The notes beneath the pieces are model-generated. The model ran no database searches. It had not been told where the DNA came from and saw only the letters and a program-made list of their open reading frames with translations. This document shows, one piece after another, positions 10,075 to 24,541 of a stretch of DNA of 64,000 bases. The DNA is taken from contig CAWJQI010000004.1 of NCBI GenBank assembly GCA_963845085.1, positions 128,001-192,000 on the forward strand. The letters are read 5' to 3'. Position 1 is the stretch's first letter, and every line of letters starts with the position of its first letter. This DNA is from Candidatus Fermentibacterota bacterium. Lineage in GTDB: Bacteria > Fermentibacterota > Fermentibacteria > Fermentibacterales > JCC-6. The position numbers and the translations under genes were made by a program.

Positions 10075-10869
10075 TCAGTGGTTTTTCGGCCTGCCGAGCG
10101 TGATGCTGATGCAGCTATCGGGATCGACGCCCCTGTAGGCGGAAAGAAGCCCGCGCAGGGCTCCCTCGAGCGCCCTTGCCGGAAAACCCGTGAGGGGAAC
10201 ACCGATCCCGTCGCTGCGAAGTTCAACCTCCCCCGAGCACTTGTCGGGACAGGATTCACAGCGCGATACCGCTCCGGTGAGTATCCTTACCGCTTCGAGG
10301 GCCATCATTGAAGCAACAAGGCATACCCTTGCGGAAAGCGTTCCCAGGCTGAGCTGGGATGCCCCGTCACCGATCATCACGAGGTTCCTGCGTCTGTCGA
10401 TCGTGACAGATGAGGGGTCACCCATGCCTGCAAGGCCGCTGCACGCGACAACAGGCGTGTCCGGCAGCGCGGAAAGCCAGGCGTTGAGCAGCATCTCCTT
10501 CGATTCATCGAGGTCAAGGGCTTCGACAAGAAGGTCACACCCCGTGAACAGGGAGACCGCGTTGGCCGAATCGATGAGATCCTCCCGGGTTTCAACAACG
10601 GTCCCGGCCTCGATGCCGAGGATCTCCCGCCTGAGGGCTTCGACCTTGCGCATGCCGATATGCTCTGCGAAATAGCACTGACGGTTCAGGTTCCTCTCCT
10701 CGACCCTGTCGAAATCGATGAGAACGAGCCTTCCAACTCCGGCCCTCGCAAGCATGAGGGCGACATTGCTTCCAATCCCGCCGCATCCGGCGATGCCCAC
10801 ACTGGAGCCCGCAAGTTTTTCTCTGAGACCGGCAGGATTGTCCCTGAAAACCTCTTCACCCCTGTTCAA
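10075..10869 (-). CDS. thiF: ThiF-family sulfur-carrier adenylyltransferase with extra C-terminal domain
   Basis: GIAGCGGIGS, LARAGVG, DFDRVE..NLNRQ, EALD motifs. Confidence 0.85.
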   Translation of the reverse strand: MNRGEEVFRDNPAGLREKLAGSSVGIAGCGGIGSNVALMLARAGVGRLVLIDFDRVEERNLNRQCYFAEHIGMRKVEALRREILGIEAGTVVETREDLIDSANAVSLFTGCDLLVEALDLDESKEMLLNAWLSALPDTPVVACSGLAGMGDPSSVTIDRRRNLVMIGDGASQLSLGTLSARVCLVASMMALEAVRILTGAVSRCESCPDKCSGEVELRSDGIGVPLTGFPARALEGALRGLLSAYRGVDPDSCISITLGRPKNH

Positions 10870-10883
10870 GGCGTCCCTCCCAT

Positions 10884-12257
10884 TTACAGCAGAACGAGCC
10901 TCCGAGTGGCAGCCGTTCCGTCGGATCCCCTGTATAGAACGATGTAGGCGCCTCCCGGAAGCTCCCCCATCGGAATGACACTGCTTCCATCCCCGTCTGC
11001 CTGAATACGGGCAACCCTTCTGCCGGCGAGATCGTAGACTTCTATGGTACCCGGGCCTGATGGATGTGACACGGTGACTTCCTGAAAAGCGGGAACCGGA
11101 GACACATGGAGAATTATTGTTGATCCCGCTTCAGGATCCATGCCGGTGTACTGCGGATGCGGCCCGTAGTGGAACCCCATGTCCGCCTGGCCGGCATCGG
11201 TGACCTGGTCGGTCCTGGTCCAGTAAAGGCCCAGGCCCGATCCCGCCGAGGGCTCTGAACCCGCGTCGACACAGGGGCTGTCCTGGGGCTGCCCTGAGGC
11301 AGTCTGGGACAAATAGTACCCGTTGAGGAAGACAGGATTCTCGGAAATGTTGCCGTTCTGACCCGTTCCGTCCGGCAGGTTGCCCCAGTCACCGTCAGGG
11401 TTGCCCCAGATGCAGTTGTGGTTGAACTGCGGATCCCCCCCGCCGTCGATCCACAGTGCGGGTGTGATGTTTCCCGACACGATGCAGTCGTGAACAACCG
11501 CGCTTGAACCGACACGGAAGTAAATGGCGCTTCCCTCGTACAGGGTGGAGTTGCCTGAGAAGGTGCACCAGCCGACGTCAGGATCGGAATAGGCGTAGCA
11601 GTAAAGGCCGGCCCCGTTGTCCCATGCGTAGTTGTCGGCAAAAAGGCAGTTCCAGACGACCGGCGAACTGTGGAACAGGTAAACCCCGCCTCCGTCGTCA
11701 TTCGAGTTGTTGTCCTCGAAAACGCAGGACTGCAGCACGGCGGCGTCGGTGGAGTAGAAGTAGATTCCCGCACCTGACGTGTTGCAGGAGTTCATGTTGA
11801 ACGAGCAGGACACGAAGATTGGCGCCCCCCTCCAAAGGTATGCTGCACCACCGCTGCCCGCATGACAGCCGTTGAACTCGACAGCCGTGATGCTCGGACT
11901 TGCGTAATAGCAGAACAGGCCTCCCCCGAGCTCCGGTGCTGTTCCGCCTGTAACGGTGAATCCCGCGAGCACCGTGCTTCTGTCCAGCGTGTCCGAGGTG
12001 AAGCCGTCGAGATGGATCACCGAGGCTGAAAGCCCATCACCGTTCAGGACCACCGTTTCAGGGTCGGACATGCTGCCGAGAAGCGTAATGCCGTTGTGTG
12101 AGCCGTTCATAAACACCAGGTTTTCCCCGGAGCCCTCATGAACACCGGGCAGGAGAAGAACGGTATCACCCGCTGCGGATGCGTCCAGGGCGTCCTGAAT
12201 GCTTTCCCCCGGGGATACCTGCACAAGACCTGCAAAAACCGCCAGCAGCATGATCAT
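10884..12257 (-). CDS. Secreted right-handed parallel beta-helix (Pmp-like repeat) protein with T9SS-like C-terminal domain
   Basis: SIQDALDA..AGDTVLLLPG, repeated F..N...GGG/GAG units, SPCVDAG, C-terminal VYDLAGRRV...LPGGAY; ATG 12257 overlaps upstream stop (ATGA). Confidence 0.85.
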   Translation of the reverse strand: MIMLLAVFAGLVQVSPGESIQDALDASAAGDTVLLLPGVHEGSGENLVFMNGSHNGITLLGSMSDPETVVLNGDGLSASVIHLDGFTSDTLDRSTVLAGFTVTGGTAPELGGGLFCYYASPSITAVEFNGCHAGSGGAAYLWRGAPIFVSCSFNMNSCNTSGAGIYFYSTDAAVLQSCVFEDNNSNDDGGGVYLFHSSPVVWNCLFADNYAWDNGAGLYCYAYSDPDVGWCTFSGNSTLYEGSAIYFRVGSSAVVHDCIVSGNITPALWIDGGGDPQFNHNCIWGNPDGDWGNLPDGTGQNGNISENPVFLNGYYLSQTASGQPQDSPCVDAGSEPSAGSGLGLYWTRTDQVTDAGQADMGFHYGPHPQYTGMDPEAGSTIILHVSPVPAFQEVTVSHPSGPGTIEVYDLAGRRVARIQADGDGSSVIPMGELPGGAYIVLYRGSDGTAATRRLVLL

Positions 12258-13669
12258 CTCAGCACGACCGTTCCGGCCACGGCCACACCATTCGCCCCGG
12301 TGCAGCGGATGAACAGGATCCCCGCCGGGATCCCGCCCGGTACCGTCCAGGCGGTCTCGACCTCCCCACTGCACGTTACATCACCAATATCGGCGAGCAG
12401 CCTGCCGTAGAGGTCGAAGGCGGCGAGGTGAACGGCTATGGAATCGATGGAACTGATCCGTATCGTCAGCGAGCCTGTGCTCGGGCAGGGATAAAGCCCG
12501 AGTTGAAAGGGTTCCGGCTGCGGGTCCGGTGACCACAGCAAGGCAAATGGGTTGAAGTGGTACCCCATGTCGGCGGTGTTCTGGTCCGGAATGCTGTCGG
12601 TACGGGTGGAGAACCAATCGACCGGGCTTCCCGCAGCCGGAACATGACCGGCATCGAAGCAGGGGCTGTCAAGCGGCTGGCCGGAGGACAACTGTGACAG
12701 CCTGAGCAGGCTGTCGGCGTAAAGGGGGTCTTCCGAGATGTTCCCGAACGAGCCCGTGGGATCTTCCATGTTGACGTAGTTCGCATACTCGTTGTCCCAG
12801 ACGCAGCAGTGACTTACAAAAACCGATTCGTCGCTGTTCTTGCGCTGCACACCGCCCTTGCCCTGGCTGTGGGTCACCAGGCACGATTCAAGGGCAAGGC
12901 TGTCAGCCGACGATACAAGGATCCCTCCTCCGTCGTCGTTGCAGGAGTTGTCATGCAGGGTGCAGAACTGCATGAAAAGCCTTCCCCGGAGATGCATCAC
13001 GCCCCCTCCGTCATCACCGGCCTGATTGCCGTGCAGAAGGACGTTCCTTGCCGTTGTGTCACCGAGGTAGGCGTAGATCCCTCCTCCATCGTCCTCGCTT
13101 GTGTTCCAGCATACCGATGAGTGCTCGAGGAGTGCGTCACTTCCATAGAAGCACACACCTCCGCCCGACACCAGGGCGAGGTTGTTCTGCACGACCATGC
13201 CCGTCAGGGAGGGAGCACCCCCCTCCGCGAAGATACCGCCCCCCATGAGGGCGCTGTTGTCTTCGACAGTGCAGTACGAAACGGTGCAGGATGCATTGGC
13301 CATGCACAGCCCGCCTCCGCCGAACCACTGGCCCGAGACGGGGTTCCCACCGGTGAGGGTAAGGTGCCTCAGCACGGTGTCATCTCCGAGAGGGCCCTGC
13401 AGTACGATAACGGGACGATTGTACCCGGCGCCGTCAAGGATCGCGGGGCTGATTGAGTCCGACATTATCACGACGCCGTCGTTTTCTGGAAGGACGTGCA
13501 GCAGCGGGAGGTCATCGGCCCTCGTGTAGGTTCCGGTATTGAAGTACAACGTGTCACCCGCGCCAAGGGCCTGAAGGCTGTCCTGGAAGGCATCGCCGGG
13601 CCACACTTCAACCCTCGAGGCGACCGCGAGGGCACTCGGAATGATAACCAGCAGGAACAGCCACCTCAT
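12254..13669 (-). CDS. Secreted right-handed parallel beta-helix protein with T9SS-like C-terminal domain
   Basis: Signal peptide; repeated N.A..GGG units; SPCFDAG...TRTD..PD...ADMGYH; C-terminal FDLYGRL...IPAGILF. Confidence 0.85.
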   Translation of the reverse strand: MRWLFLLVIIPSALAVASRVEVWPGDAFQDSLQALGAGDTLYFNTGTYTRADDLPLLHVLPENDGVVIMSDSISPAILDGAGYNRPVIVLQGPLGDDTVLRHLTLTGGNPVSGQWFGGGGLCMANASCTVSYCTVEDNSALMGGGIFAEGGAPSLTGMVVQNNLALVSGGGVCFYGSDALLEHSSVCWNTSEDDGGGIYAYLGDTTARNVLLHGNQAGDDGGGVMHLRGRLFMQFCTLHDNSCNDDGGGILVSSADSLALESCLVTHSQGKGGVQRKNSDESVFVSHCCVWDNEYANYVNMEDPTGSFGNISEDPLYADSLLRLSQLSSGQPLDSPCFDAGHVPAAGSPVDWFSTRTDSIPDQNTADMGYHFNPFALLWSPDPQPEPFQLGLYPCPSTGSLTIRISSIDSIAVHLAAFDLYGRLLADIGDVTCSGEVETAWTVPGGIPAGILFIRCTGANGVAVAGTVVLR

Positions 13670-15837
13670 GGAGCACCACCTGTCTTGATGAATCGGAGAG
13701 CCCTCTGCATGCCTGCATATGAAATCTGGAGGAAGTACACGCCTGAAGGAAGGGCTTCCACTTCGACAGCAACCGAATGAGTGCCTGCATTCAGGTCCAG
13801 TTCAAGGGGGGGCATCGCTTCCCTCCCGGCCAGGTCGAACACCCTCAGAACACATGCCCCCCCGGGATATACAAGAACCGATGCCGATGCGAAACTTGTG
13901 GCAGGGTTCGGATGGAGGGAAAAGAGATCAAGGGTGTAATCCGGTGTCCAGGGCGGATCGGAGCTGTTGGACAGCCCCGGAGTGCCTCCGTCCGGGATCG
14001 CCGTCCAGGAGGCGGGATCCGAGTTATCCCTTTCCGGGCTCGAAAGGGCGAGACTCCACCCGCCGTCCGCCGGTTCCGACGGCCAGGGATGGAAAGGAAG
14101 ATAGGGAACGTAGTCGACCTGATTGCCAAGGTGGTCGTAGAGCCTGAGTATCTCGCCTTCGGCAGAGAGCCCGAACTGAAAGGGATCAGGGTCGGCATTG
14201 CAATCACGATATGTGTTGATGAACGCTTCGGGGTTCTGCCGCAGCACAAGGTATGCGCCGGGGTCAAGCACGATGTCGCTTATCACGTGGAGGTTCCTGT
14301 CCTGCGTGTCCCGAAATGCCCAGCCACCAAGATCAACGGCTTCGGCCCCGGCATTGTAAAGCTCCACCCAGTCATCGGGGGCGATCAGGTCGCCGTTCCT
14401 GTAAAACACCTCGTTTATTACGATGCTGCCGGTTCTTGCGACAACAGGTGATGGTGCGAGGCGAACCGATCTGTTGAGGGCCCTCTCCTCCCTGAACGTG
14501 TTGTACGCCCTCACCTGAAGGTAGGTTATCGAGCCGGGGCCGGCGCCGGGGTCATGGATCAGGATCGAGGTGTCGCCAGTCTCGGTCTCCCAGAATACCG
14601 CGGACTCGTCAAGGAATGTCGAATCCGTGGACAGGCTTACCCTGTACCGGGAGGATCGCTCAGCATCCGACCATGTTGCGAGGATCTCATCCGGATCGTA
14701 CTGCTCGGTCGGGTGGAGGAGGAATGGAAGCGGCCAGGAAGCGAGCATCTCCTCAAGCGCTGAAAGCCTTGCTGCCGGCCAGTTCCTGATCACGTCAACA
14801 GAAGCCTCGAACTGGGCCATGGAGTAGTCCCGAAAGGGATCGACCTGTACAAGAGGTTGCGCCAGGGCTGCCAGCGAATCGATCACACCGCCTGCGGACC
14901 AGGCGAGAAACTCCGAAGACCGCTCTTCGAGCCTTTCCAGAATGAGCTCCCTCAGGTGCGGAATCGCCCACAGACGGTACAGAAGGACATTGGGTTCGCA
15001 GGAATCGTTCGTCACCCAGTAGTAGGGCAGGTCCGTTCCGTACGCCGACCCCCATGTCTTGTCCATGTCCCAGGGGACCATCCTCCATCTGCCGAAGGTT
15101 CCCGGTGCGTCCAGCACCATGTGGTAGTTGTGGTAGTACGTGCTGCCATGACCGAGGAGCGTATTCGCTGCAATGCAGTCCAGAAGGGCGTCGAAGTGCG
15201 TCCTGCCCGCCAGGTCACCGACGAACACGCTGTCGGGGCAGGTGAGCAGCCAGCGTATGAGCCATTCCAGATCATCGGTTGGAAGGTCCTCGAATGTTTT
15301 CTTGAGGTAACGGTTCAGGACGTGAGGGGAGTTGAGGGAGGATCCGTATTCCCTGCATTTGTAGATGACCGCATCGTCAGGCAGCCATGTTCTGAGCGCG
15401 AAGTCGCCGTCCACGTCCTCGACGAACAGGTAGGGGCCCTGGGTGGCGCCGTTGTACACAACCTCGGTCATGGCGACAAAAGGAACGATCTGTCCGCAGT
15501 ATTCGTGAAAAAGGTAGGACAGGTTCTCCCTGATCCTGCTTCTATCAGTGTACTCGGTGTTGAGGTTCAGCTCGTCGAAGCCGTGCAGGAGAAAACCCGG
15601 TGCAAGTCTCACCTTGATCGACTTTTTGGGATAGTAACTGCTGCTCTGTCCCCTGATCTGCATCGTGCACCCGCATGACAGGGAACCGGACGAGAGGGCT
15701 GCATCGACGAGTATCTCCTGGTCAGGATGGGCGCAGGCAAATGCCCACTCCTCGGGATCGAACTCCAGGGAAATCGTCACCACGGTATCCGGCCATGCGG
15801 ATACCGCTGACAGAAGAACGAGCATCATCGCAGCCAT
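13666..15837 (-). CDS. CotH-family kinase with lamin-tail domain and T9SS-like CTD (paralogue 3)
   Basis: IRGQSS.YYPKKS, EDVD..F, HNY, PWDMD; lamin-tail INEVFY...DWVELYN; HPNP...VFDLAGRE...LPSGVYF. Confidence 0.88.
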   Translation of the reverse strand: MAAMMLVLLSAVSAWPDTVVTISLEFDPEEWAFACAHPDQEILVDAALSSGSLSCGCTMQIRGQSSSYYPKKSIKVRLAPGFLLHGFDELNLNTEYTDRSRIRENLSYLFHEYCGQIVPFVAMTEVVYNGATQGPYLFVEDVDGDFALRTWLPDDAVIYKCREYGSSLNSPHVLNRYLKKTFEDLPTDDLEWLIRWLLTCPDSVFVGDLAGRTHFDALLDCIAANTLLGHGSTYYHNYHMVLDAPGTFGRWRMVPWDMDKTWGSAYGTDLPYYWVTNDSCEPNVLLYRLWAIPHLRELILERLEERSSEFLAWSAGGVIDSLAALAQPLVQVDPFRDYSMAQFEASVDVIRNWPAARLSALEEMLASWPLPFLLHPTEQYDPDEILATWSDAERSSRYRVSLSTDSTFLDESAVFWETETGDTSILIHDPGAGPGSITYLQVRAYNTFREERALNRSVRLAPSPVVARTGSIVINEVFYRNGDLIAPDDWVELYNAGAEAVDLGGWAFRDTQDRNLHVISDIVLDPGAYLVLRQNPEAFINTYRDCNADPDPFQFGLSAEGEILRLYDHLGNQVDYVPYLPFHPWPSEPADGGWSLALSSPERDNSDPASWTAIPDGGTPGLSNSSDPPWTPDYTLDLFSLHPNPATSFASASVLVYPGGACVLRVFDLAGREAMPPLELDLNAGTHSVAVEVEALPSGVYFLQISYAGMQRALRFIKTGGAP

Positions 15838-15871
15838 ATCATTCTTCCCGCGCTTGTGTCACCTGCTGAAC
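15821..15871. repeat. 51-bp direct repeat, copy 1 (CotH gene junction)
   Basis: agcatcatcgcagccatatcattcttcccgcgcttgtgtcacctgctgaac, identical to 18346-18396. Confidence 0.9.
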
Positions 15872-18362
15872 TCACAACAAGAAAATACACTCCCGAGGGC
15901 AGTCCGGGGGGCGGCTCGAGGGAGTACTCTTCCACACCCGGCTCAAGCATGCCAATATCGTGCACCACCCTTCCCGCCAGGTCGACAAGAAGCGCTGATA
16001 CAGGGCTGTCGACGGCTGATACCGAGAAGTAGACCCGGTCATGCCCGGCTGGAACAGGATGGATGCAGCGCAATTCCAGCGGCTCGGAGACATGCAGGTC
16101 CCAGGAGGCGTTCGGTGAACCCGGAGTGCCGGGATACATGACAACCTCCCATGATTCTGCATTCTTCGGGTCCTTGTCCGGACCAATAAGGGAGAGTACC
16201 GCATCTGATGCGTCCGCCCATGGGAGTTCCGACCCGAAGGTCAACAGGTTGGAGGTAGAACCTGTACGGCTGATGAAACGAAGTGTTTCACCTTCCGCTG
16301 AAAGGTCGAAGCCAAGTGCGGTCACACCACACTGAAGCCTCGGGTGAGCGAGGAGGAACGACTGCGGGCTGGATGCAAGGATGAGGTATCCGCCGGGAGG
16401 AATCCCGGTCCCTGCGGGAAGCACCGTGAACCCTTCTCCGGAGTCGGATATCCCGGTGAGGGACAGGTCCAGCCATCTCCCGTCAGGGTTGTGGAGCTCA
16501 ATCCAATCGCCCGAGCCCGCGCACTGCGGCTGTGAGTAGCACAGTTCGGTCAGAAGCGGGATGCAGTTGCCGATTCGGAGAAGTCTTTCCCCTGGCGGAA
16601 CCAAGTGAGTGGTGGCCGGGGTCCATGAAGGATCGCAGATCATGACAACCGATGAAGAAACGGAAGGAGCGGCGCAGTCACCTGCTGCTTTCCTCCCTGA
16701 AAGCGTAAGCGAAAAGGCATCGAGATCGTTGGTTACGAACAGTGTTTCTCCAGGCGCGAGCAGCAGGCTGTCCGGGAAGAAAACGCTGTAAGGCGGATCG
16801 CCCAGCACAGCCTGACAGAGAGAAAGATCCATCGTTGTGCAACTCTCGTTCACCATGGGAAGAGCCCAGAGGGAAGGTCCCAGGCGTATCTGGGTTCCAG
16901 GAAGGAGCATTTCCACTTCAGGTTCCGCGTCAACACGAACAACCGAGGGAAGCGCTTCGTTTCCATAGGTATTCCCGTATATCCCGTATGAAGGATAATA
17001 AATTGTAGGGGTCGGTTCAGGCAGATTGGCCTGACGATAGTAAACAAGGAAACGCATTGACTCTTCGAATGCTGCCAGAGCTGCAATCCCGGCAGTCCAC
17101 TCCCTGCCTCCTGACCCTTGAACCTGATGCATTTCAAGTTCTTCGGGATCATCATTATCAGGAACAACATAAAGCGTGCACCACGCAAGAGAATCTGAAG
17201 AAGAGAAGTTCACCGCGAGAATCCGGTCATCCGGAGTAACCCATCCCGGTTCGATGGACAGGGAAGTGAACTCGGGAGGGTTGTGATGCACCGACAGTTC
17301 GCGCACGACGGCGGAACGCTCCGTGATGAACAGCCTGAGGGAGTCGCAGGCCGATTCGAAATCCGCCGGAGTTCCCTGTCTGAGAGGATCCTGATACACA
17401 TCAGCCCTGATGCTGTTTCTGATCGAATCCAGACTCATCGGCAGTTCGTTCTCAAGAATATCTGCCGCCCTTTCCAGGTCCTGACCGAATTGTTCTCTAT
17501 GGCTGCACTCCGCGAGCGCTCTTGGGAATAGCGAGTTCATGTACATGGGCTGGTAGTAAACTGCTTCGACCCTTGCGAAGTCGAACAACCCCCTCCAGTC
17601 ATTCCCGAAGGATGCGTCGTGGTCCCATGGATAGTACCTCCACACCCCGTCCACACCGAGAATCAGAAAGTAGTTTTTCACGCAGCAGTCCATGTCAAAG
17701 ATTGCAAGGTTCGCTGCCATATTCCCAACGAAGGATTCCACTTCGAAACGGCCTTCATATTCGCCGCCACGGCATACATCCCCGATGAGCCGTACAAGCT
17801 CCGGAATACCGTACTCGTCACCGCTCCTGCATTCAAAACCATCATCGGGCGGGTGCCCGGAGAGGAACGGAACCAATCTTGCCTGACTTCCCACAGCCTT
17901 GAACACCGCACCATCGGGCAGGCCGTTCCTTGCAAGGAAGTCATCATCCACGCGTTCAGTCTCAAGGTACACACCCATGTTGGAGCCGTTGATGGAGAGC
18001 GTGACATGTCTGGTCATCGGAGCCGGGTACCCCATCCGCCTGACCAGTTCCATTGCCAGGTGGTTCCGCATCATGCTCAAATCCCTGTAATGAGCGTCGA
18101 GGAGCAGTTCGCAGCGTCCGATCATGCCTTCATCGAACAACTCCATTCGCCAGGATTTCTTCGGCAGCTCAAGCGATGTGCTCCCGCGAAAGCCCACCAT
18201 GCAGTCGCACTCCCCGGAAGGACAGGATATGTGTGCCGGGTAGGTCGTTTCCGTCTCCGGATACCCGTAAAGCGCTTCAAGATCCTCGGGAGCCATCGTC
18301 ACCTCGTAATGCCAGAGGTCCCCGGTCAGAATGACGGCAATCAGCAGCATCATCGCAGCCAT
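15825..18362 (-). CDS. CotH-family kinase with lamin-tail domain and T9SS-like CTD (paralogue 2)
   Basis: FRGSTS..LPKKSW, GVYLETERVD, D...KNYF, PWDHD; TELCY...DWIELHN; LPSGVYF. Confidence 0.88.
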   Translation of the reverse strand: MAAMMLLIAVILTGDLWHYEVTMAPEDLEALYGYPETETTYPAHISCPSGECDCMVGFRGSTSLELPKKSWRMELFDEGMIGRCELLLDAHYRDLSMMRNHLAMELVRRMGYPAPMTRHVTLSINGSNMGVYLETERVDDDFLARNGLPDGAVFKAVGSQARLVPFLSGHPPDDGFECRSGDEYGIPELVRLIGDVCRGGEYEGRFEVESFVGNMAANLAIFDMDCCVKNYFLILGVDGVWRYYPWDHDASFGNDWRGLFDFARVEAVYYQPMYMNSLFPRALAECSHREQFGQDLERAADILENELPMSLDSIRNSIRADVYQDPLRQGTPADFESACDSLRLFITERSAVVRELSVHHNPPEFTSLSIEPGWVTPDDRILAVNFSSSDSLAWCTLYVVPDNDDPEELEMHQVQGSGGREWTAGIAALAAFEESMRFLVYYRQANLPEPTPTIYYPSYGIYGNTYGNEALPSVVRVDAEPEVEMLLPGTQIRLGPSLWALPMVNESCTTMDLSLCQAVLGDPPYSVFFPDSLLLAPGETLFVTNDLDAFSLTLSGRKAAGDCAAPSVSSSVVMICDPSWTPATTHLVPPGERLLRIGNCIPLLTELCYSQPQCAGSGDWIELHNPDGRWLDLSLTGISDSGEGFTVLPAGTGIPPGGYLILASSPQSFLLAHPRLQCGVTALGFDLSAEGETLRFISRTGSTSNLLTFGSELPWADASDAVLSLIGPDKDPKNAESWEVVMYPGTPGSPNASWDLHVSEPLELRCIHPVPAGHDRVYFSVSAVDSPVSALLVDLAGRVVHDIGMLEPGVEEYSLEPPPGLPSGVYFLVVSSAGDTSAGRMIWLR

Positions 18363-18396
18363 ATCATTCTTCCCGCGCTTGTGTCACCTGCTGAAC
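18346..18396. repeat. 51-bp direct repeat, copy 2 (CotH gene junction)
   Basis: Identical to 15821-15871. Confidence 0.9.
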
Positions 18397-20896
18397 GAAC
18401 AACAAGATAGTACACCCCCGAGGGCAACCCCGGGGGAAGCCCGAGCGAACGCTCCTGCAGGCCGGGTTCAAGGATCACGGGGTCAAGCACCATCCTTCCG
18501 GCCAGATCGAAAACAAGCAATGAAACAGGGCCGATGCCTCCGGAAACAAAGAAGTGCACCTCACCGGCCGTGACCGGATTCGGTCGTATCGACCGGATCA
18601 GGACGTCACCGCCTTCGCACTGGAACCATGATGGATTTGCCGTGCCGGGAGTTCCCGGCTGCTCCGCCGCTTCCCAGGATGCCGGCTGAGAGAGGTCGGC
18701 TGATGGATCAATCGCGGCGATGATGCCGGATTCTGCTTCCGGCCAGGGTGGGTCTTGGGAATAGCTGACGAGATCGGTCGGGTGCCCTGCCCTGTTGATG
18801 AAACGAAGGGTTTCTCCATCGGATGAAAGGCTGAAACCCATGTCCAGCACCGGGCAGCCCGGATCGGGGAATTGTTCGAGGAAAAGATCCGTGTTGGACG
18901 CGAGTACGAGAAAGCCGAACGGAGGCATCAGTGTGCCTTCCGGGAACACCATGCGTCCGGGATCCGAACCGGCAATTCCGGCATTGGACAGATCAAGCCA
19001 GTCCCCTCCCGGGTTGTAGCACTCGATCCAGTCGCCCGGGTTGGCGTTCACCGGCTGCGCGTACGAGATCTCCGTGACAAGCGGGTGATCGTTCGTGGGA
19101 CGGATTGTCCGCTCGGACAGCGGGACCATGTGACTGATGCCGAAACACCAGCCGGGATCGAAAAGCGTTGCCCAGGAGCCGGTGGCGGAGATGGCGCTGC
19201 AATCCCCCACAACCGTCCTTCCCGGGAGCTCGGTTGAGAACGCCTCGGAATTGCTGGCGACGAACAAGGTCTCACCCGGGGCCAGTATCAGGTTCTCCGG
19301 GAAAAAGACCCTGTACGGAGGATCGCCCACGGCAAGATAGCACAGCGAGAGGTCCATCGCTGAACCGCTTTCGTTGACCATTGGAAGCGCCCATAATGAA
19401 GGACCGAGCCTGATCGGTTGTGCAGGAAGAAGCAGGGAGGGGTTCGGAGCTGCCTCAACCCTTACTGCGGAGGGAAGAGCCTCCTCGTTGTAGACCCCGC
19501 TGAAAACTGAATATGGAGGAAAGAACAGGGGTGGCTCCGGCCAGGAAAGGTCGATCTGGCACATCTTGACGAAGAAATGAAGGTCATCGCCGAGCCATTC
19601 GTCGGCGCTGATCATCACGCTCCATTCCTTTCTGCCGGTCCAGGCCACGGGCTGCATTTCCTTTTCGAAAATGAGCCCCGAATCGGAATAGGCGAAGAGG
19701 CGGCACCAGAACAGGGAATCCGAGGAGTACGCAGTGATGGCAATGCTGTCGGTTCCGGGGGTTATCCAGGAAGGTGCTGCAAAAAGGGAGAGCGAGTCGG
19801 GTCTGCTGTGGTGGGAGGCGAAGCCGGGAAGCATCTCGGCGCGCTCTGTTATAAACCACCTGAGGCTGTCGCACGCTGCTTCGAAATCGTCAATGGTCCC
19901 CTGTCTCAGAGGATCGAGCATTACATCGGCGCGTATCGCACTCCTTACGGAATCAAGGCACGCTGTCAATTCCGTCGCCATGATCGACGCAGCATCATCC
20001 AGCATCTCGTGGAATGCCTGCCTGTGAACGGGATCCCTCATGATGCCTTGAAACAGCGGGGAGACAAGCATCTGATCCGTGTACGGCCATCCCGCCAGTT
20101 CCCGATGAAATTCACCCTGCCAGTCGTTTCCGAACGATGAATCATGATCCCATGGAAAGTAGCGCCATACGCCGTCTGCTCCAAGGCTCAAGTAGTAGTT
20201 CTTGCACGGACCATCCTGCTCCATCATTGCCAAATTCGCAACCATATTGCCGATAAGCGGTTCCATGTCGATCGAGTTCTCGAACCCACCGTGGCCGCAC
20301 ACGGATTCAATCAGTCGGAGCAGTTCCGGAAGCATCCATTCGTCACCGGTCCGCCACTCGAATCCATCCCCCCTGGGATGGCCGGAGAGGAAGGGTGAGA
20401 ACCTGCCTGCACCGCTGACGGCTTTGAAAAACGCCCCGTCGGAAAGACCGTTCCTTGTCAGAAACCCCTCGTCGATCCGCTCGGTCTCAAGGTAGACGCC
20501 CATGTTCTCGCCATTTATGGACAGGGTAACATGCCTCGTGAGGGGTGCGGGGTATCCCATCCTCCTCACCAGCTCCATCGCAAGGTGGTTTCTCATCATC
20601 GAGAGATCCCTGTAGTGGGCGTCGAGATTGACCCTGGAGCGGCCTGTAAGCCCTTCATCGAACACATCGATCCGCCATGACTTCTTGGGGAGATGAACCG
20701 ATGTGGTGCCACGGAAGCCAACCAGGCAGTCACTCTCCCCCGCGGGGCAAGAGATGTGTGCCGGGTACATGGCTTCCGATTCGGGATAGCTGTAAAGCTC
20801 TTCGAGATGCTGCGGATCCATGACCATCTCGTAATGCCACAGACCCTGTGCCTGAATTGCAGATACGAGCAGGAACAGGAAGGTCACAGCGTGCAC
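18350..20896 (-). CDS. CotH-family kinase with lamin-tail domain and T9SS-like CTD (paralogue 1)
   Basis: FRGTTS..LPKKSW, GVYLETERID, QDGPCKNYY, PWDHD; TEISY...DWIECYN; RPNP...VFDLAGRM...LPSGVYY. Confidence 0.88.
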   Translation of the reverse strand: MHAVTFLFLLVSAIQAQGLWHYEMVMDPQHLEELYSYPESEAMYPAHISCPAGESDCLVGFRGTTSVHLPKKSWRIDVFDEGLTGRSRVNLDAHYRDLSMMRNHLAMELVRRMGYPAPLTRHVTLSINGENMGVYLETERIDEGFLTRNGLSDGAFFKAVSGAGRFSPFLSGHPRGDGFEWRTGDEWMLPELLRLIESVCGHGGFENSIDMEPLIGNMVANLAMMEQDGPCKNYYLSLGADGVWRYFPWDHDSSFGNDWQGEFHRELAGWPYTDQMLVSPLFQGIMRDPVHRQAFHEMLDDAASIMATELTACLDSVRSAIRADVMLDPLRQGTIDDFEAACDSLRWFITERAEMLPGFASHHSRPDSLSLFAAPSWITPGTDSIAITAYSSDSLFWCRLFAYSDSGLIFEKEMQPVAWTGRKEWSVMISADEWLGDDLHFFVKMCQIDLSWPEPPLFFPPYSVFSGVYNEEALPSAVRVEAAPNPSLLLPAQPIRLGPSLWALPMVNESGSAMDLSLCYLAVGDPPYRVFFPENLILAPGETLFVASNSEAFSTELPGRTVVGDCSAISATGSWATLFDPGWCFGISHMVPLSERTIRPTNDHPLVTEISYAQPVNANPGDWIECYNPGGDWLDLSNAGIAGSDPGRMVFPEGTLMPPFGFLVLASNTDLFLEQFPDPGCPVLDMGFSLSSDGETLRFINRAGHPTDLVSYSQDPPWPEAESGIIAAIDPSADLSQPASWEAAEQPGTPGTANPSWFQCEGGDVLIRSIRPNPVTAGEVHFFVSGGIGPVSLLVFDLAGRMVLDPVILEPGLQERSLGLPPGLPSGVYYLVVRSAGDTSAGRMIWLR

Positions 20897-20928
20897 CCCT
20901 CCAATTCCATGCCTCCTTTCGCGGCTTC

Positions 20929-21621
20929 TCAGTACTCCACGTCGTTGCAGGATGAAACCATGTTCACATTGTCCACGCCGACGAGTGCGTTAAGGCTCGT
21001 GGCAATGGCGGCGGGAGTGGTCCCGGGGGAAAGCCTGATGTCGTAGGTGAGGATCAGGTACTTGCCGCCGCCGGAGGGCTCAACATGGATCAGGGTGCTG
21101 TTTCTGGAGAGCCTGCGGATGATCTCGACGTGTTGTTCCTCGCCGCCGGCCTCGCGGTCGTACCGGAACCTCAGGATGAACTCGCTCTGCATCATGCTGC
21201 CGTAGTTGGTTTTGGCGAGCAGCCAGGCCACGATGCAGATGAACACCGTGGAGAGCACGGCAAGCCTGATGTTTGCCGTGCCGCATGCTATGCCTTCAGT
21301 GAGGGCAAAGAAGATGAACGCCGTGTCACGGGTGTCTTTGACCACTGTCCTGAATCGCACTATGGTGAGGGCGCCCACCAGCGCGAAGGCTCTGGCCAGG
21401 TTGCTTCCGATCACCATCATCACGGAACAGACGATAAGGCTCATCAGGACAAGCGTGATTACGAGTGATTGGGAGTATGAGAGCCCCCTGTGGGTCCTGC
21501 GGTACACGTACCCGATGAAGAGGCCGATCAGAAGCGATGCGAGAAGGTTCTCGAAAACATATAGAAGACTGTACCCCATGGTCTGGTCAACCTCGGTGAA
21601 CCAGGAGATCAAAGCGGCCAA
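20929..21621 (-). CDS. DUF4956 membrane protein
   Basis: IGSNLARAFALVGALTIVRFRT..KDTRD..FIF....GIACG signature; TM helices plus a C-terminal ACT-like region. Confidence 0.92.
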   Translation of the reverse strand: MAALISWFTEVDQTMGYSLLYVFENLLASLLIGLFIGYVYRRTHRGLSYSQSLVITLVLMSLIVCSVMMVIGSNLARAFALVGALTIVRFRTVVKDTRDTAFIFFALTEGIACGTANIRLAVLSTVFICIVAWLLAKTNYGSMMQSEFILRFRYDREAGGEEQHVEIIRRLSRNSTLIHVEPSGGGKYLILTYDIRLSPGTTPAAIATSLNALVGVDNVNMVSSCNDVEY

Positions 21622-22391
21622 CTGCGCCCCCTCTCAACCATCCTGTCAAGCATGGAACGGGAGTTGAGCATCCATAAACGCTCTCCTGCCGTGTGAAACT
21701 TGGAGAACGAGATGCGTGTAAGCTCAAGGCCCTGCGTCAGCCTGTGAAACCAGGCGGGGAGATGGTAACGGAACTTTATCTCAAGCACTGAGAAATCCGA
21801 TGAAAGGTCTTCTTCGTTCCCTGTGGGAAGGCCGTCCCTTCCCGCCTTCCATGCGGTAACCCCCCTGTCGATGGTAGCCCGGAAATCCGGGTTGGCTGCG
21901 TTCTCAAAAGCGGTTCTTCTGTAGTCAACCACAAGGCTCGGGGAAAGCCTGTTCCTGAAACAGTCCGCCACGAAATGGCGCCCCACGCCGTTGCAGCCCT
22001 CGCTGTCCATGACAAAACCGCAGAGCTTCGAGGTACCTCCCGCCAGAGCTTCCCGGAGCCCCTCGGCCGGCATGATGTGCCTGTGCTTGTAAACAAGGCA
22101 GTCCTGCTTGCCTTTCAGCTCGAGGAACACAGGATCGGCCGAGCCCGGGTTATACGACCTGATCCGGAACTTGTACCTCGAGTGAAGACCGTCGGTTTTC
22201 TGCTGGTGATATGCGAAATTGGATGTGTCGAAATATAGGCTCCTGACGCTGTACGACCCGTCTGCTGCGGAATGAGAGTCACGCTCCATCCGGTTTTCGA
22301 TGGCGCCAAGAACGGAGGTCTCCGTCTGACCGGAGACAAGGTATTTGAACTCGTACCTGTGAAAATGCAGCTTGCGCATGGATGAATCCAT
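21609..22391 (-). CDS. VTC-domain polyphosphate polymerase
   Basis: RYEFKY, YSVRSLYFDT, RYKFRIRSY, FLELK.K, YRRTAF, RATID, VLEIKF, SFSKF; start placed at ATG 22391 overlapping the porin stop (TGATG). Confidence 0.93.
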   Translation of the reverse strand: MDSSMRKLHFHRYEFKYLVSGQTETSVLGAIENRMERDSHSAADGSYSVRSLYFDTSNFAYHQQKTDGLHSRYKFRIRSYNPGSADPVFLELKGKQDCLVYKHRHIMPAEGLREALAGGTSKLCGFVMDSEGCNGVGRHFVADCFRNRLSPSLVVDYRRTAFENAANPDFRATIDRGVTAWKAGRDGLPTGNEEDLSSDFSVLEIKFRYHLPAWFHRLTQGLELTRISFSKFHTAGERLWMLNSRSMLDRMVERGRSWPL

Positions 22392-23425
22392 CAGAACCTG
22401 ACCCCCAGCTCCGTGATGTAGTCGGTGCAATCATCCCGGGAATCATCCTGAAAGCTCCTGTTGATCATCGTGAACCTGAGCCTTGTTCTGGAGGTCATCC
22501 AGACCCCTATCAAAGGCGCGACGAAACTCTCCTCATCCGAGCCGTCCACCTCCGGCGCAAGCACAGACCAAGAGACTCCGGCTTCGATGGATCTTATCCC
22601 GGGAACGCTCCCGAGCCTTTGTTCCAGGACCCCTGAAGCCCAGTAGCCCCTGAAACCGGGCGGGGTTTCACCGTAGATCACATCGGCTTCATCCCAGTTG
22701 TCTCCCGCAACGTACTCGGCATCAAGCTCTAGCCTTGTGCTGAAAGTGACGGGCTGATCCAGCCTGAGGAATGCAGAGAACGCCTGCATGCTCCCGGAGG
22801 AGGCATATCCCGAGGGCAGCATCGGGTCGTATTCCCCGAGGCGCAGGCTTGACAGAGCGCCCCCCATGGTCAGGGCGGCCACGGGCTCGAACTCGATGGA
22901 AGCGGTGTACATCTTTTCCCTCTCATTCCCGGGGCCGTTAAAAACTCCGAGAGAGAGCGTAGACTGAAGCGGAACAGGCGATGAAAGCTCGACCATTGCT
23001 CCCGTTGAGCGGTCGGAGTATCCCAGGTCGCCGGCAAGATCGTGTATCAGCGGACGCTCCACTGAAAGAAGGTTCCAGTTGGACGTGGATGTTGCCATGC
23101 AGAAGGGCTTTTTAAACAGCCCCGCTGTCAGTTCCAGATAGTCGAGTGGCGACCAGGAGATGATGCAGTCCTTGAGATAGACCTCGTCGGGTCGCGTTTC
23201 CACCTCAATTTCGACGGCGAGGTTCCCCCCGAGGTCTGAGCCGGCGGTCAGGCTTGCCCGCTTGATGAGGAATTCACCGATCGGGCCGCATGTGATCTCG
23301 CCGAGCATCTCATGCCGGGCGTACACCTGCCCGGAAAGCTCTACGGCTGCAGCCGGCGCGACCAGGGCCGAGGCCATGAACAGAGCATGCAGATGGCTGA
23401 ACGAAAAAAAACGCATTTTCCACAC
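22391..23425 (-). CDS. Outer-membrane porin-like beta-barrel (phosphate-selective porin O/P-like)
   Basis: Signal peptide, ELSGQV, LKD..I, AGLFKKPF, ERP, LGVFNG, amphipathic strands, terminal Phe (ELGVRF). Confidence 0.72.
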   Translation of the reverse strand: MWKMRFFSFSHLHALFMASALVAPAAAVELSGQVYARHEMLGEITCGPIGEFLIKRASLTAGSDLGGNLAVEIEVETRPDEVYLKDCIISWSPLDYLELTAGLFKKPFCMATSTSNWNLLSVERPLIHDLAGDLGYSDRSTGAMVELSSPVPLQSTLSLGVFNGPGNEREKMYTASIEFEPVAALTMGGALSSLRLGEYDPMLPSGYASSGSMQAFSAFLRLDQPVTFSTRLELDAEYVAGDNWDEADVIYGETPPGFRGYWASGVLEQRLGSVPGIRSIEAGVSWSVLAPEVDGSDEESFVAPLIGVWMTSRTRLRFTMINRSFQDDSRDDCTDYITELGVRF

Positions 23426-23473
23426 TCCGTTACTGGATTGGAAAGCTGAATATAGCGGTATGTCCGTGTTCCG

Positions 23474-24541
23474 TCAGAGCCAACCCTTTCTGCGGAACCA
23501 GAGCAGCATTCCGATGGCGATCAGCGCACAGAGCAGCAGAACCGCCGGATAGGCCCATGGATATGAAAGTTCCGGCATGCGTCTGAAGTTCATTCCGTAG
23601 ATGCCGGCAATGAATGTGAGCGGTATGAAGATGGTCGAGATTATCGTCAGGACCTTCATTACGCTGTTCGTACGGTTGCTCACGCTGGACAGGTACACGT
23701 CGAGGAGCCCCGAGGCCATGTCCCGGAAGGACTCAACCGTGTCCATGATCTGTATGGTATGGTCGTGAAGGTCCCTGATAAAGGGCTGAGTCCCCGGTTT
23801 TACCAGTGCCAGTGCATCGCGCATCAGGATGGCAAGGCCGTCGCGCAGCGGCCATACCGCCCTTCTCAGAAGGATCAGCTCACGCTTGAGCCTGTGGATC
23901 ATGTTTGCGACTTCCTGGCCCGCGTGATCCGTGACCTGATCCTCTATGGCGTCGACGTCCTCCCCCATCTTCTCCAGTGCAAGGAAGTAATTGTCGATGA
24001 CCGCGTCCATCAGGGCATAGGCGAGGTAATCGGCGCCCTGTTTCCTGATCAGACCCTTGCCGGAGCGTATCCTTTCCCTCACCGGATCGAACACGTCCCC
24101 CTCTTTCTCCTGGAAGGTGATCACCACGCTGTCCGCAAGGATGATGCTGACCTGTTCGATGTCCAGTTCCCCGATTTTCTCATCATATCTTATCATTTTG
24201 ACCACCATATAGATGTGGTCATCGTAAACTTCCACCTTGGGACGCTGGCTGGTATGGAGAATGTCCTCCTGGACCAGGGGATGCACCCCGTAACCACTGC
24301 ACAGCTTCGCCACGAGATCGGTGTCGGACAACCCCGTGACATTCAGCCATTTCACCCTGGGTGATTCTTTGCGGAGCATGGCTGTTTCGACTGAAACCGA
24401 GCCTGTCTCGGTGACTCCGGTTCCGTCGAATTCGATCAGTTCGAGGCTGACTGCCGATGCGTGTTTCTCTCCGACATGTATGAGCGTTCCCGGTGCCTTG
24501 CCCGATTTAAGGCTGTGCCCCCTGGCGTAAAGACGGCTCAT
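23474..24541 (-). CDS. corA: Magnesium/cobalt transporter CorA
   Basis: HPLVQEDI...QRPKVE, YGMNF, MPEL, two C-terminal TM helices; start placed at ATG 24541. Confidence 0.97.
   Translation of the reverse strand: MSRLYARGHSLKSGKAPGTLIHVGEKHASAVSLELIEFDGTGVTETGSVSVETAMLRKESPRVKWLNVTGLSDTDLVAKLCSGYGVHPLVQEDILHTSQRPKVEVYDDHIYMVVKMIRYDEKIGELDIEQVSIILADSVVITFQEKEGDVFDPVRERIRSGKGLIRKQGADYLAYALMDAVIDNYFLALEKMGEDVDAIEDQVTDHAGQEVANMIHRLKRELILLRRAVWPLRDGLAILMRDALALVKPGTQPFIRDLHDHTIQIMDTVESFRDMASGLLDVYLSSVSNRTNSVMKVLTIISTIFIPLTFIAGIYGMNFRRMPELSYPWAYPAVLLLCALIAIGMLLWFRRKGWL

Follow-up and report, generated by a model that had tools for sequence, protein, structure and literature searches.

The core trio of CotH, VTC and DUF4956 families is not new, having already been published: cotH, a 'poly-phosphate polymerase' gene (PPP) and a DUF4956 gene are accessory genes of the pel loci of Gram-positive bacteria (bioRxiv 10.1101/768473). 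According to a 2024 study (bioRxiv 10.1101/2024.04.20.589940), the S. intermedius trio is SIR_1592-1594, single knockouts of its genes barely alter Pel or aggregation, and no trio is reported as found outside pel. The authors of that study take the trio to make polyphosphate that is perhaps kept in the cytoplasm, which counts against export. The same trio is listed in NELoc-2 of C. perfringens (PMC2879425), and it also lies beside polysaccharide genes on a Planococcus plasmid. Literature searches, which reached few subscription journals, turned up no publication that gives the trio a function.

In a Fermentibacteraceae genome the three families of this trio are likewise adjacent, within an operon of eight genes on the minus strand (all positions are those of the window, the whole stretch of 64,000 nt that was analysed). 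The genes encode, in order, a porin, a VTC domain, a DUF4956 protein, three CotH proteins (CotH1 to CotH3) and two beta-helix proteins (BH1 and BH2). The porin and VTC genes overlap by 1 nt, VTC and DUF4956 by 13 nt, CotH1 with CotH2 and CotH2 with CotH3 by 1–13 nt depending on the choice of start, and CotH3 with BH1 and BH1 with BH2 by 4 nt each, while a 32 nt gap separates DUF4956 from CotH1. The original prediction of eight co-oriented genes from 23425 to 10884, nearly all overlapping, with one 32 nt gap and corA upstream, is thus borne out. Promoter-like sites in the locus are at chance level (5 found, 5.8 expected), and no RNA holder is listed for the stretch.

As in the pel loci, the families adjoin each other, and an exported CotH, a cytoplasmic VTC protein and a putatively MgtC-like membrane protein with an ACT-like domain are predicted. 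The host here is, in contrast, diderm, there is no glycosyltransferase in the operon, none of the 14 proteins scanned with Pfam belongs to a pel family, and the trio is not contiguous with pelDEA(DA)FG, being flanked by corA and a ThiF-family gene, the latter 14 nt downstream of BH2. Further differences from the pel loci are the OprO/P-like porin, the T9SS-type C-terminal domains, the several CotH copies of two types and the pair of beta-helix proteins. The corA gene for a Mg2+/Co2+ transporter (23474..24541, minus strand; TIGR00383 over cut-off, CorA 250 bits) lies 48–57 nt upstream of the porin in the same orientation, and had been given a place in the system. It adjoins the operon in 7/7 loci of the same genus, in 0/13 other loci of the family and in 0/80 distant loci; as this adjacency is at the genus level only, corA was rejected as a member and is probably not part of the system.

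The VTC gene (21609..22391) is a single copy in the genome and encodes a stand-alone, Vtc4-type tunnel domain of 260 aa with one Pfam family (PF09359, 126 bits). In the yeast VTC complex (Vtc4/Vtc3/Vtc1; 3g3q, 7ytj, 8i6v) the homologous domain, with the same catalytic residues, is joined to SPX and fused helices, whereas here the catalytic domain is alone, with no fused SPX or three membrane helices. The family profile has Vtc4 (3g3q) as its top PDB match (E 4e-23), followed by Vtc2/3 (E 1e-13 to 1e-10), and no hydrolase-type or CYTH-type tunnel enzyme chain is among its matches at E<=10. Residues K16, R76, R78, K93, E204 and K231, conserved in 93–95 of the 95 alignment rows, align with Vtc4 K200, R264, R266, K281, E426 and K458, among which K200 and K281 also have catalytic roles. 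R264, R266 and E426 are catalytic in Vtc4 (PMC9911596), as is K458 (PMC4641920). In the region that corresponds to the acidic patch of the tunnel hydrolases, by a mapping to AtTTM3 based on motifs, R12, K93 and K206 provide basic side chains like those of Vtc4, but E14 is acidic. The earlier suggestion that this is a polyphosphate polymerase is supported as a prediction from these residues, and neither PPK1 (0/60) nor PPK2 (0/60) was found in Fermentibacteraceae genomes. Against delivery of polyphosphate stand E14, a hydrolase-type residue absent from Vtc4 and acidic in 93/95 rows, and the fact that no bacterial VTC protein with measured activity was found in the literature searched.

The DUF4956 gene (20929..21621; PF16316, 58 bits) encodes a predicted inner-membrane exporter or membrane partner of VTC. 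The linkage that had been noted for the two recurs: they adjoin in 20/20 family loci, and a VTC gene is present in 75/80 distant DUF4956 loci. The layout appears MgtC-like, with a helical membrane domain and an ACT-like domain (model pLDDT 75), although the match to MgtC (PF02308) is 20.7 bits, under the cut-off of 31.4, and the resemblance of the C-terminal domain to that of MgtC (2lqj; Z 8.0, rmsd 3.1, 87 aligned) is tied with unrelated ACT folds. In common with the yeast complex, the VTC domain is accompanied by a membrane protein, here encoded by the adjoining gene and carrying the invariant basic residues R89, R91 and K95, but yeast Vtc1 has three helices in a five-subunit pore, and the yeast complex includes no CotH or porin. 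The monomer model of the membrane domain (pLDDT 79) resembles helical bundles only moderately (Z at most 8.6), fold searches with the whole protein and with this domain alone returned no Vtc1, Vtc3 or Vtc4 membrane chain and no clear match, and the profile has only chance matches among PDB sequences. The fold and profile searches neither show nor exclude a Vtc1-like pore.

Pseudomonas OprO and OprP are 16-strand trimers with an arginine ladder and phosphate selectivity, and porins of this type are known for uptake, which counts against an outward direction here. The porin of the operon (22391..23416, alternative GTG start at 23425) has 341 aa, as against 411–429 aa in OprO/OprP, and ends in Phe. 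It belongs to the same Pfam family (PF07396), barely above threshold (22.3 vs 20.9 bits), and its family profile has OprO (4rjw, E 4.6e-4) and OprP (2o4v, E 3e-3) as best PDB matches, over about 110 positions only. A paralogue (25% over 179 aa) sits between PhoB/PhoR-like genes and pstSCAB-phoU, which agrees with the OprO/P-like assignment made previously and would suggest that ordinary phosphate uptake does not depend on the operon porin.

Porin, VTC and DUF4956 are adjacent in 19 of the 20 family loci fetched, and therefore the arrangement is not due to chance. A general linkage of the porin in diderms, as had been supposed, is not supported, the porin being present in just 5/80 distant loci, where it accompanies an exported Asp-type CotH. 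In a wide scan of 57 loci with a whole CotH domain, the Asp-type loci have the porin in 4/4 cases and the other 53 lack it, an association whose weight is limited by the four porin-bearing loci being from three lineages. Such confinement would be expected if the porin were needed only when the enzyme is beyond an inner-membrane anchor. A search for hidden porins near the distant cores identified 36 ORFs ending in F or W, of which 30 were scanned, with 3 added, while six were dropped because they lay antisense to core genes or had been named before; the sole Porin_O_P match was the positive control, in a scan that could miss divergent barrels.

All three CotH genes of the genome are in the operon. 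CotH1 (18350..20896), CotH2 (15825..18353, alternative start 18362) and CotH3 (13666..15828, alternative start 15837) score 165, 157 and 143 bits, respectively, over the Pfam cut-off like the VTC, DUF4956, beta-helix and CorA matches, and each also has a lamin-tail domain, unlisted previously, as were the T9SS-type C-terminal domains and the Ser at the catalytic position of CotH3. The CotH domain is that of the Bacillus spore-coat CotH (5jd9/5jda, matched by CotH1 at E 4e-23 and by the CotH3 profile at 1.5e-50), which acts on CotB and CotG, but here surface secretion from a non-sporulating cell is predicted and there is no Ser/Lys/Arg-repeat substrate in the operon. T9SS-type C-terminal domains (TIGR04183) are over cut-off in three of five proteins, CotH1, CotH3 and BH2, and under it in CotH2; the genome has matches to SprA (SprA_N) and PorV, and the N-termini of the putative T9SS cargo are hydrophobic as judged by eye.

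Of the three CotH kinases that had been proposed, two retain the aspartates essential in B. subtilis (D228, D251), namely D228/D250 in CotH1 and, in CotH2, D222 together with the WD motif. In CotH3 the WD motif is kept, but Ser229 aligns without gaps to Asp224 of 5jd9 in the profile alignment, in place of the catalytic Asp; the D228Q form of B. subtilis CotH is inactive. The Ser-type proteins, 29 of 73 rows, form one clade with support 0.94. CotH1 and CotH2 are 54% identical (blastp), encoded by direct repeats of 2525 nt period that are 69–77% identical, and only 1/6 complete loci of the genus has a third CotH copy at this site; judged by this similarity, CotH2 is a tandem duplicate of CotH1. 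A Lys aligns with the adenine-stacking Tyr142 of Bacillus CotH in all three proteins (numbering offset inferred), preceded by an aromatic residue. Trp245 of the same adenine site is kept in all three and the sole characterised CotH uses ATP, both of which count against polyphosphate as the donor.

BH1 (12254..13669; PF13229, 40 bits) is a right-handed beta-helix protein with Pmp-like GG repeats and a C-terminal domain, and is encoded after the 720 aa Ser-type CotH in 18/19 rows. BH2 (10884..12257; Beta_helix, 53 bits), 31% identical to BH1, follows it wherever the contig reaches, and CotH3, BH1 and BH2 are a conserved unit of their own. It had been suggested that the beta-helix proteins are kinase substrates, but their Ser/Thr content (14–15%, against 13–16% in neighbours) is not enriched and in sister proteins a CotH of the same Asp-less type is fused to a beta-helix, such that BH1 and BH2 look like partners of CotH3 rather than its substrates. 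Origin as split-off parts of the fused beta-helices of the 1100 aa and 930 aa CotH types was rejected (hhalign <=81% over <=64 columns), those two matching each other at 99.6% over 254 columns. The weak PDB matches of the family (PL6 lyases, Rhombotarget A) indicate no function, and its cluster matches are only to unnamed beta-helix, DUF1565 and Pmp clusters.

Among 46 genomes at least 90% complete and at most 5% contaminated, VTC, DUF4956 and CotH are all present in 33 and all below cut-off in 13, which extends the association noted previously to joint presence or absence in 46/46. Eight of the 13 negative genomes are in another family and so count as one event. The four negative genomes within the family are at separate places on the pyrG tree and run unbroken across the cassette site that is occupied in G019, which suggests that the trio was lost in about four separate events; in two of the four losses, one deletion could have removed all of the linked genes. 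The negative genomes include G069, the sister genus of which keeps its CotH genes away from VTC. Genome G026 was rejected as a true loss or as having BH1 and BH2 without CotH, since its contig stops 115 nt beyond BH1, at the point where the cassette starts in G028. Two family loci (L012 and L013) have VTC and DUF4956 without a nearby CotH, L012 also lacking the porin, which counts against delivery of polyphosphate to CotH.

The operon is likely to supply phosphate chemistry at the ATP-free cell surface. From sequence we infer both transport and catalysis in the reading preferred here, to which we give slightly less than an even chance: that CotH enzymes at the surface use polyphosphate which the cell itself makes and exports. 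VTC, on the cytoplasmic side of the inner membrane, would polymerise it from ATP, DUF4956 would pass the chain through that membrane, and the porin would give it passage through the outer one. The CotH proteins, for which secretion by a type IX-like route is predicted, would then take polyphosphate in place of ATP as phosphoryl donor. CotH1 and CotH2 would be conventional phosphotransferases. CotH3 may act as one unit with BH1 and BH2, in which it would either bind polyphosphate without being catalytic or work by an altered chemistry, while the beta-helices would hold a polymer as acceptor, a surface glycan or protein. A more speculative, and doubtful, version is that VTC, DUF4956 and the porin power the surface kinases with polyphosphate secreted across both membranes instead of with ATP, while the Ser-type CotH and beta-helices are a new kind of transferase, adding phosphate or whole chains to surface polymers by non-canonical chemistry.

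The closest solved relatives of the porin being uptake porins, with a paralogue in the pst operon, the flow might instead be inward, with surface CotH-fold and beta-helix proteins binding or releasing outside phosphate or polyphosphate, the porin and DUF4956 importing it, and VTC storing or degrading it. The lack of PPK1 and PPK2 in the family means that VTC may be the storage enzyme, and metallophosphoesterase-family genes lie near 11/80 distant loci and inorganic pyrophosphatase genes near 5/80 (clusters, two members of each named). This scavenging is unlikely: elsewhere the genome encodes a full Pst system that has a porin to itself, the kinase fold, in which the RG, KKS and WD motifs are intact, is no known hydrolase scaffold, and the known mode of Vtc4 is one in which synthesis is coupled to outward passage (PMC9911596).

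It is also improbable that polyphosphate stays inside, with DUF4956 as an MgtC-like, ACT-sensing regulator, a separate CotH donor (ATP or another) and a linkage of shared regulation only. A purely cytoplasmic role does not explain the porin directly before VTC in 19/20 family loci, CotH is missing from all 13 good genomes without VTC, and there is no evident source of ATP at the surface. The MgtC-like layout does favour it, as do the view of the S. intermedius authors (bioRxiv 10.1101/2024.04.20.589940), the location of CotH genes at sites separate from VTC in other genera, and the 3/4 plasmid records in which DUF4956 has no VTC or CotH within 7 kb, the last counting against delivery. The departure from Vtc4 at E14 could mean that VTC makes a different product, either polyphosphate of short length or a phosphoryl carrier linked to a lipid or sugar, and passes it to DUF4956, while CotH-fold enzymes decorate an envelope glycan with it. 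The trio does lie beside polysaccharide genes in pel loci, NELoc-2 and the Planococcus plasmid, and the Asp-less CotH types are associated with beta-helices for which PL6 alginate lyases are among the weak PDB matches, but the operon has no glycosyltransferase and the chain-guiding basic tunnel residues of Vtc4 are kept at R12, K93 and K206, making this a quite improbable explanation.

Many microbes that do not sporulate export CotH-family proteins to compartments free of ATP, and the routes of polyphosphate release by bacteria are unknown. In B. cereus, PPK-independent extracellular polyphosphate is reported, with no VTC4 homologue found (PMC13484657). The trio families also have matches in B. 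thetaiotaomicron, C. glutamicum and M. acetivorans, which offers culturable models. The Fermentibacteraceae locus sharpens the test, having no PPK background, a dedicated porin, and Asp-type and Ser-type CotH side by side. If polyphosphate is indeed made, exported and used at the surface, the widespread trio would be a third bacterial route to polyphosphate, a bacterial equivalent of synthesis that is coupled to passage through a membrane, and the donor supply of surface kinases.

The operon is on the minus strand, where a porin gene (23425/23416-22391) is followed by genes for VTC (22391-21609), DUF4956 (21621-20929), CotH1 (20896-18350), CotH2 (18362/18353-15825), CotH3 (15837/15828-13666), and two beta-helix proteins, BH1 (13669-12254) and BH2 (12257-10884). 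The positions and tight junctions of these eight genes are as first noted, and Pfam and NCBIfam uphold the families assigned to them, including CorA upstream (24541-23474) and Porin_O_P, a Pfam match that is barely above cut-off. The nearest named homologues are from Fermentibacteraceae. In the genome, which is 88% complete, VTC occurs as a single gene and CotH as three, every one of them inside the operon. Each CotH carries a lamin-tail domain (Pfam/NCBIfam), and a T9SS type A sorting domain is above cut-off in CotH1, CotH3, and BH2 (NCBIfam). Because there are SprA and PorV matches in the genome, and 102 of its proteins end in a match to a custom C-terminal-domain profile, surface secretion is likely.

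The inclusion of corA in the system is not borne out. It adjoins the operon in 7/7 same-genus loci and in 0/13 other loci of the family, and none was found in a wider survey of the 80 top-ranking loci out of 284 with a confirmed DUF4956, a non-random sample, as the query came from the nearest clade. The gene 14 nt past BH2 (window 10075-10869) encodes a ThiF-family protein extended by an additional C-terminal segment; it has the same place in several same-genus genomes and is probably a co-transcribed neighbour.

With a VTC profile built from 68 homologues, the top match is yeast Vtc4 (E 4e-23), with Vtc2/3 next and no hydrolase-type tunnel enzymes at E<=10. K16 and K93 of the VTC protein align with Vtc4 K200 and K281, which are further catalytic residues. 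R76, R78, E204, and K231, invariant in 95/95 rows, are the counterparts of Vtc4 R264, R266, and E426 (PMC9911596) and K458 (PMC4641920). The latter paper describes an acidic patch in tunnel hydrolases at the site where Vtc4 is basic; the VTC protein is basic at R12, K93, and K206, yet E14 is acidic in 93/95 rows, which is one departure from Vtc4. Since neither PPK1 nor PPK2 was found in 60 family genomes, VTC is the sole recognisable polyphosphate polymerase predicted across them.

In 20 family loci, chosen for long contigs out of 53 VTC-bearing genomes, DUF4956 is directly after VTC in all 20 and the porin directly before it in 19, with CotH in 18 and the BH pair in 6. Of 46 genomes with completeness of at least 90% and contamination of at most 5%, 33 have VTC, DUF4956, and CotH, and 13 have none above cut-off, eight of these being from another family and five within Fermentibacteraceae. 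Genome G026 was rejected as a true loss, being probably a contig break. The trio-negative genomes G013, G018, G037, and G069 occupy four separate positions on a pyrG tree (one gene, 29 rows). The VTC-linked porin and the 1100-aa CotH are missing from all four, in which the sequence is unbroken between the flanking TPR gene and the gene bordering the cassette in genome G019. In G013 and in G018 a single deletion each could account for most of the loss. G069 is the stronger case of joint loss, because its sister genus keeps CotH genes apart from VTC.

In the predicted model of DUF4956, five long helices are accompanied by an ACT-like domain similar to the C-terminal domain of MgtC (2lqj; Z 8.0, rmsd 3.1, 87 aligned), a match with which other ACT folds tie. 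The invariant residues R89, R91, and K95 are candidate polyanion contacts. On two Bacteroidota plasmids (L165:6923-9006, L166:6944-9884), DUF4956 is without a nearby VTC and the next gene is of the TolC or HlyD family, neighbours hinting that DUF4956 may itself act in export. In five proteobacterial loci (L025:10668-12344, L026, L027, L099, L103) the gene after DUF4956 encodes a protein of ~560 aa whose C-terminus has a dockerin/EF-hand-like match. In genera g2, g7, and g8 a stand-alone lamin-tail-domain protein of ~196 aa is tail-to-tail with DUF4956 (L015:12922-13521 and relatives); its counterpart in the window's genome sits elsewhere (G000:C1:124543-125133).

Among the best 80 of the 284 loci, VTC is present at 75 and CotH at 59. 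The porin is at 5, which does not support a linkage general in diderms; in the 37 of these loci with long flanks, the counts are VTC 36, CotH 33, and porin 2. Against a strict trio, 3/4 plasmid DUF4956 genes examined have no VTC or CotH inside 7 kb. Most CotH in these 80 loci are ~930 aa long and carry a hydrophobic anchor at the N-terminus, with His at the catalytic position in 49/59 rows and a C-terminal beta-helix in 13/15 scanned. In 46 of the 80, the gene before or after the His-type CotH encodes a protein of 330-510 aa (L028:5264-6397 and relatives) that has a hydrophobic helix at its N-terminus, matches no Pfam family, and is absent from the window's operon. Of the 57 loci from this set with a whole CotH domain, four have an Asp-type CotH, and the porin is present in 4/4 of these and in 0/53 of the remainder. 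The four represent three lineages, one being Fermentibacteraceae.

The original prediction of three CotH kinases stands for CotH1 and CotH2, which keep the catalytic Asp, and is not supported for CotH3, which has Ser229. This residue aligns ungapped with 5jd9 Asp224, corresponding to D228 of B. subtilis, a change of which inactivates the kinase (bioRxiv 469122). CotH1 and CotH2 are tandem duplicates, and in 5/6 complete loci of the same genus there are just two CotH genes. The CotH1/CotH2 and CotH2/CotH3 junctions have ~50 identical bases in common (window 18330-18400, 15805-15875), despite only 54% protein identity between CotH1 and CotH2.

In a tree of 73 CotH rows, for which one in four of the distant rows was kept, the 29 Ser-type rows all group in a single clade (support 0.94). 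Ten are ~1100 aa with a fused beta-helix, to which that of the ~930-aa CotH is homologous (99.6%). The other 19 are ~720 aa, and BH1 is immediately next in 18 of them; L006 has a remnant only. Because CotH3-BH1-BH2 stands apart from VTC in 9/9 fetched g8 loci and also in genus g7, the window's operon is a merger of two modules, with the beta-helix genes on the side of the Asp-less CotH. In genome G043 (L113:6724-11652) this unit is split into several frames, through either decay or assembly error. The beta-helix proteins had been proposed as kinase substrates. Since they are not Ser/Thr-rich and have no detailed homology to the fused beta-helix, a putative role as CotH3 partners fits better.

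The description of the porin as OprO/P-like is supported in that OprO and OprP are the top PDB matches of its family profile, across only ~110 positions. A paralogue in the same genome (25% over 179 aa) is flanked by pstS, pstC, pstA, pstB, and phoU, all above cut-off, and by PhoB/PhoR-like genes, best matches below cut-off (G000:C4:467001-477000, L169). As this copy adjoins pst genes, the porin family is predicted to be tied to phosphate and the VTC-linked porin to be a second, dedicated copy. A third copy (G000:C4:294695-296952) is seemingly split across two frames.

Our literature search found no published function for the trio. Published accounts place cotH, the polyphosphate polymerase, and DUF4956 next to Gram-positive pel loci (bioRxiv 768473), and the same three families in the gene list of C. 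perfringens NELoc-2 (PMC2879425), and the S. intermedius authors, whose single knockouts of the trio genes left Pel and aggregation almost unaltered, suggest that polyphosphate may remain cytoplasmic and found no trio outside pel (bioRxiv 2024.04.20.589940). The analysis also drew on bioRxiv 2023.01.27.525886, PMC13484657, PMC10434189, PMC13454231, PMC8250860, and PMC10657179. The favoured reading, at somewhat less than an even chance, is that VTC would synthesise polyphosphate, which would pass through both membranes and be taken as phosphoryl donor by the surface CotH enzymes. Inward scavenging, for which the same porin would serve, is unlikely. So, to the same degree, is a cytoplasmic or regulatory role. 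A different product, used in glycan decoration, is slightly less probable again.

The system may work like a split VTC, and it does not belong to the eukaryotic VTC complex. The gene set is already known but unexplained, and the window's operon is a new variation on it. Its novelty lies in the PPK-free background, the joint losses, the Ser-type CotH accompanied by two beta-helix proteins, and the tie of the porin to the type of CotH.
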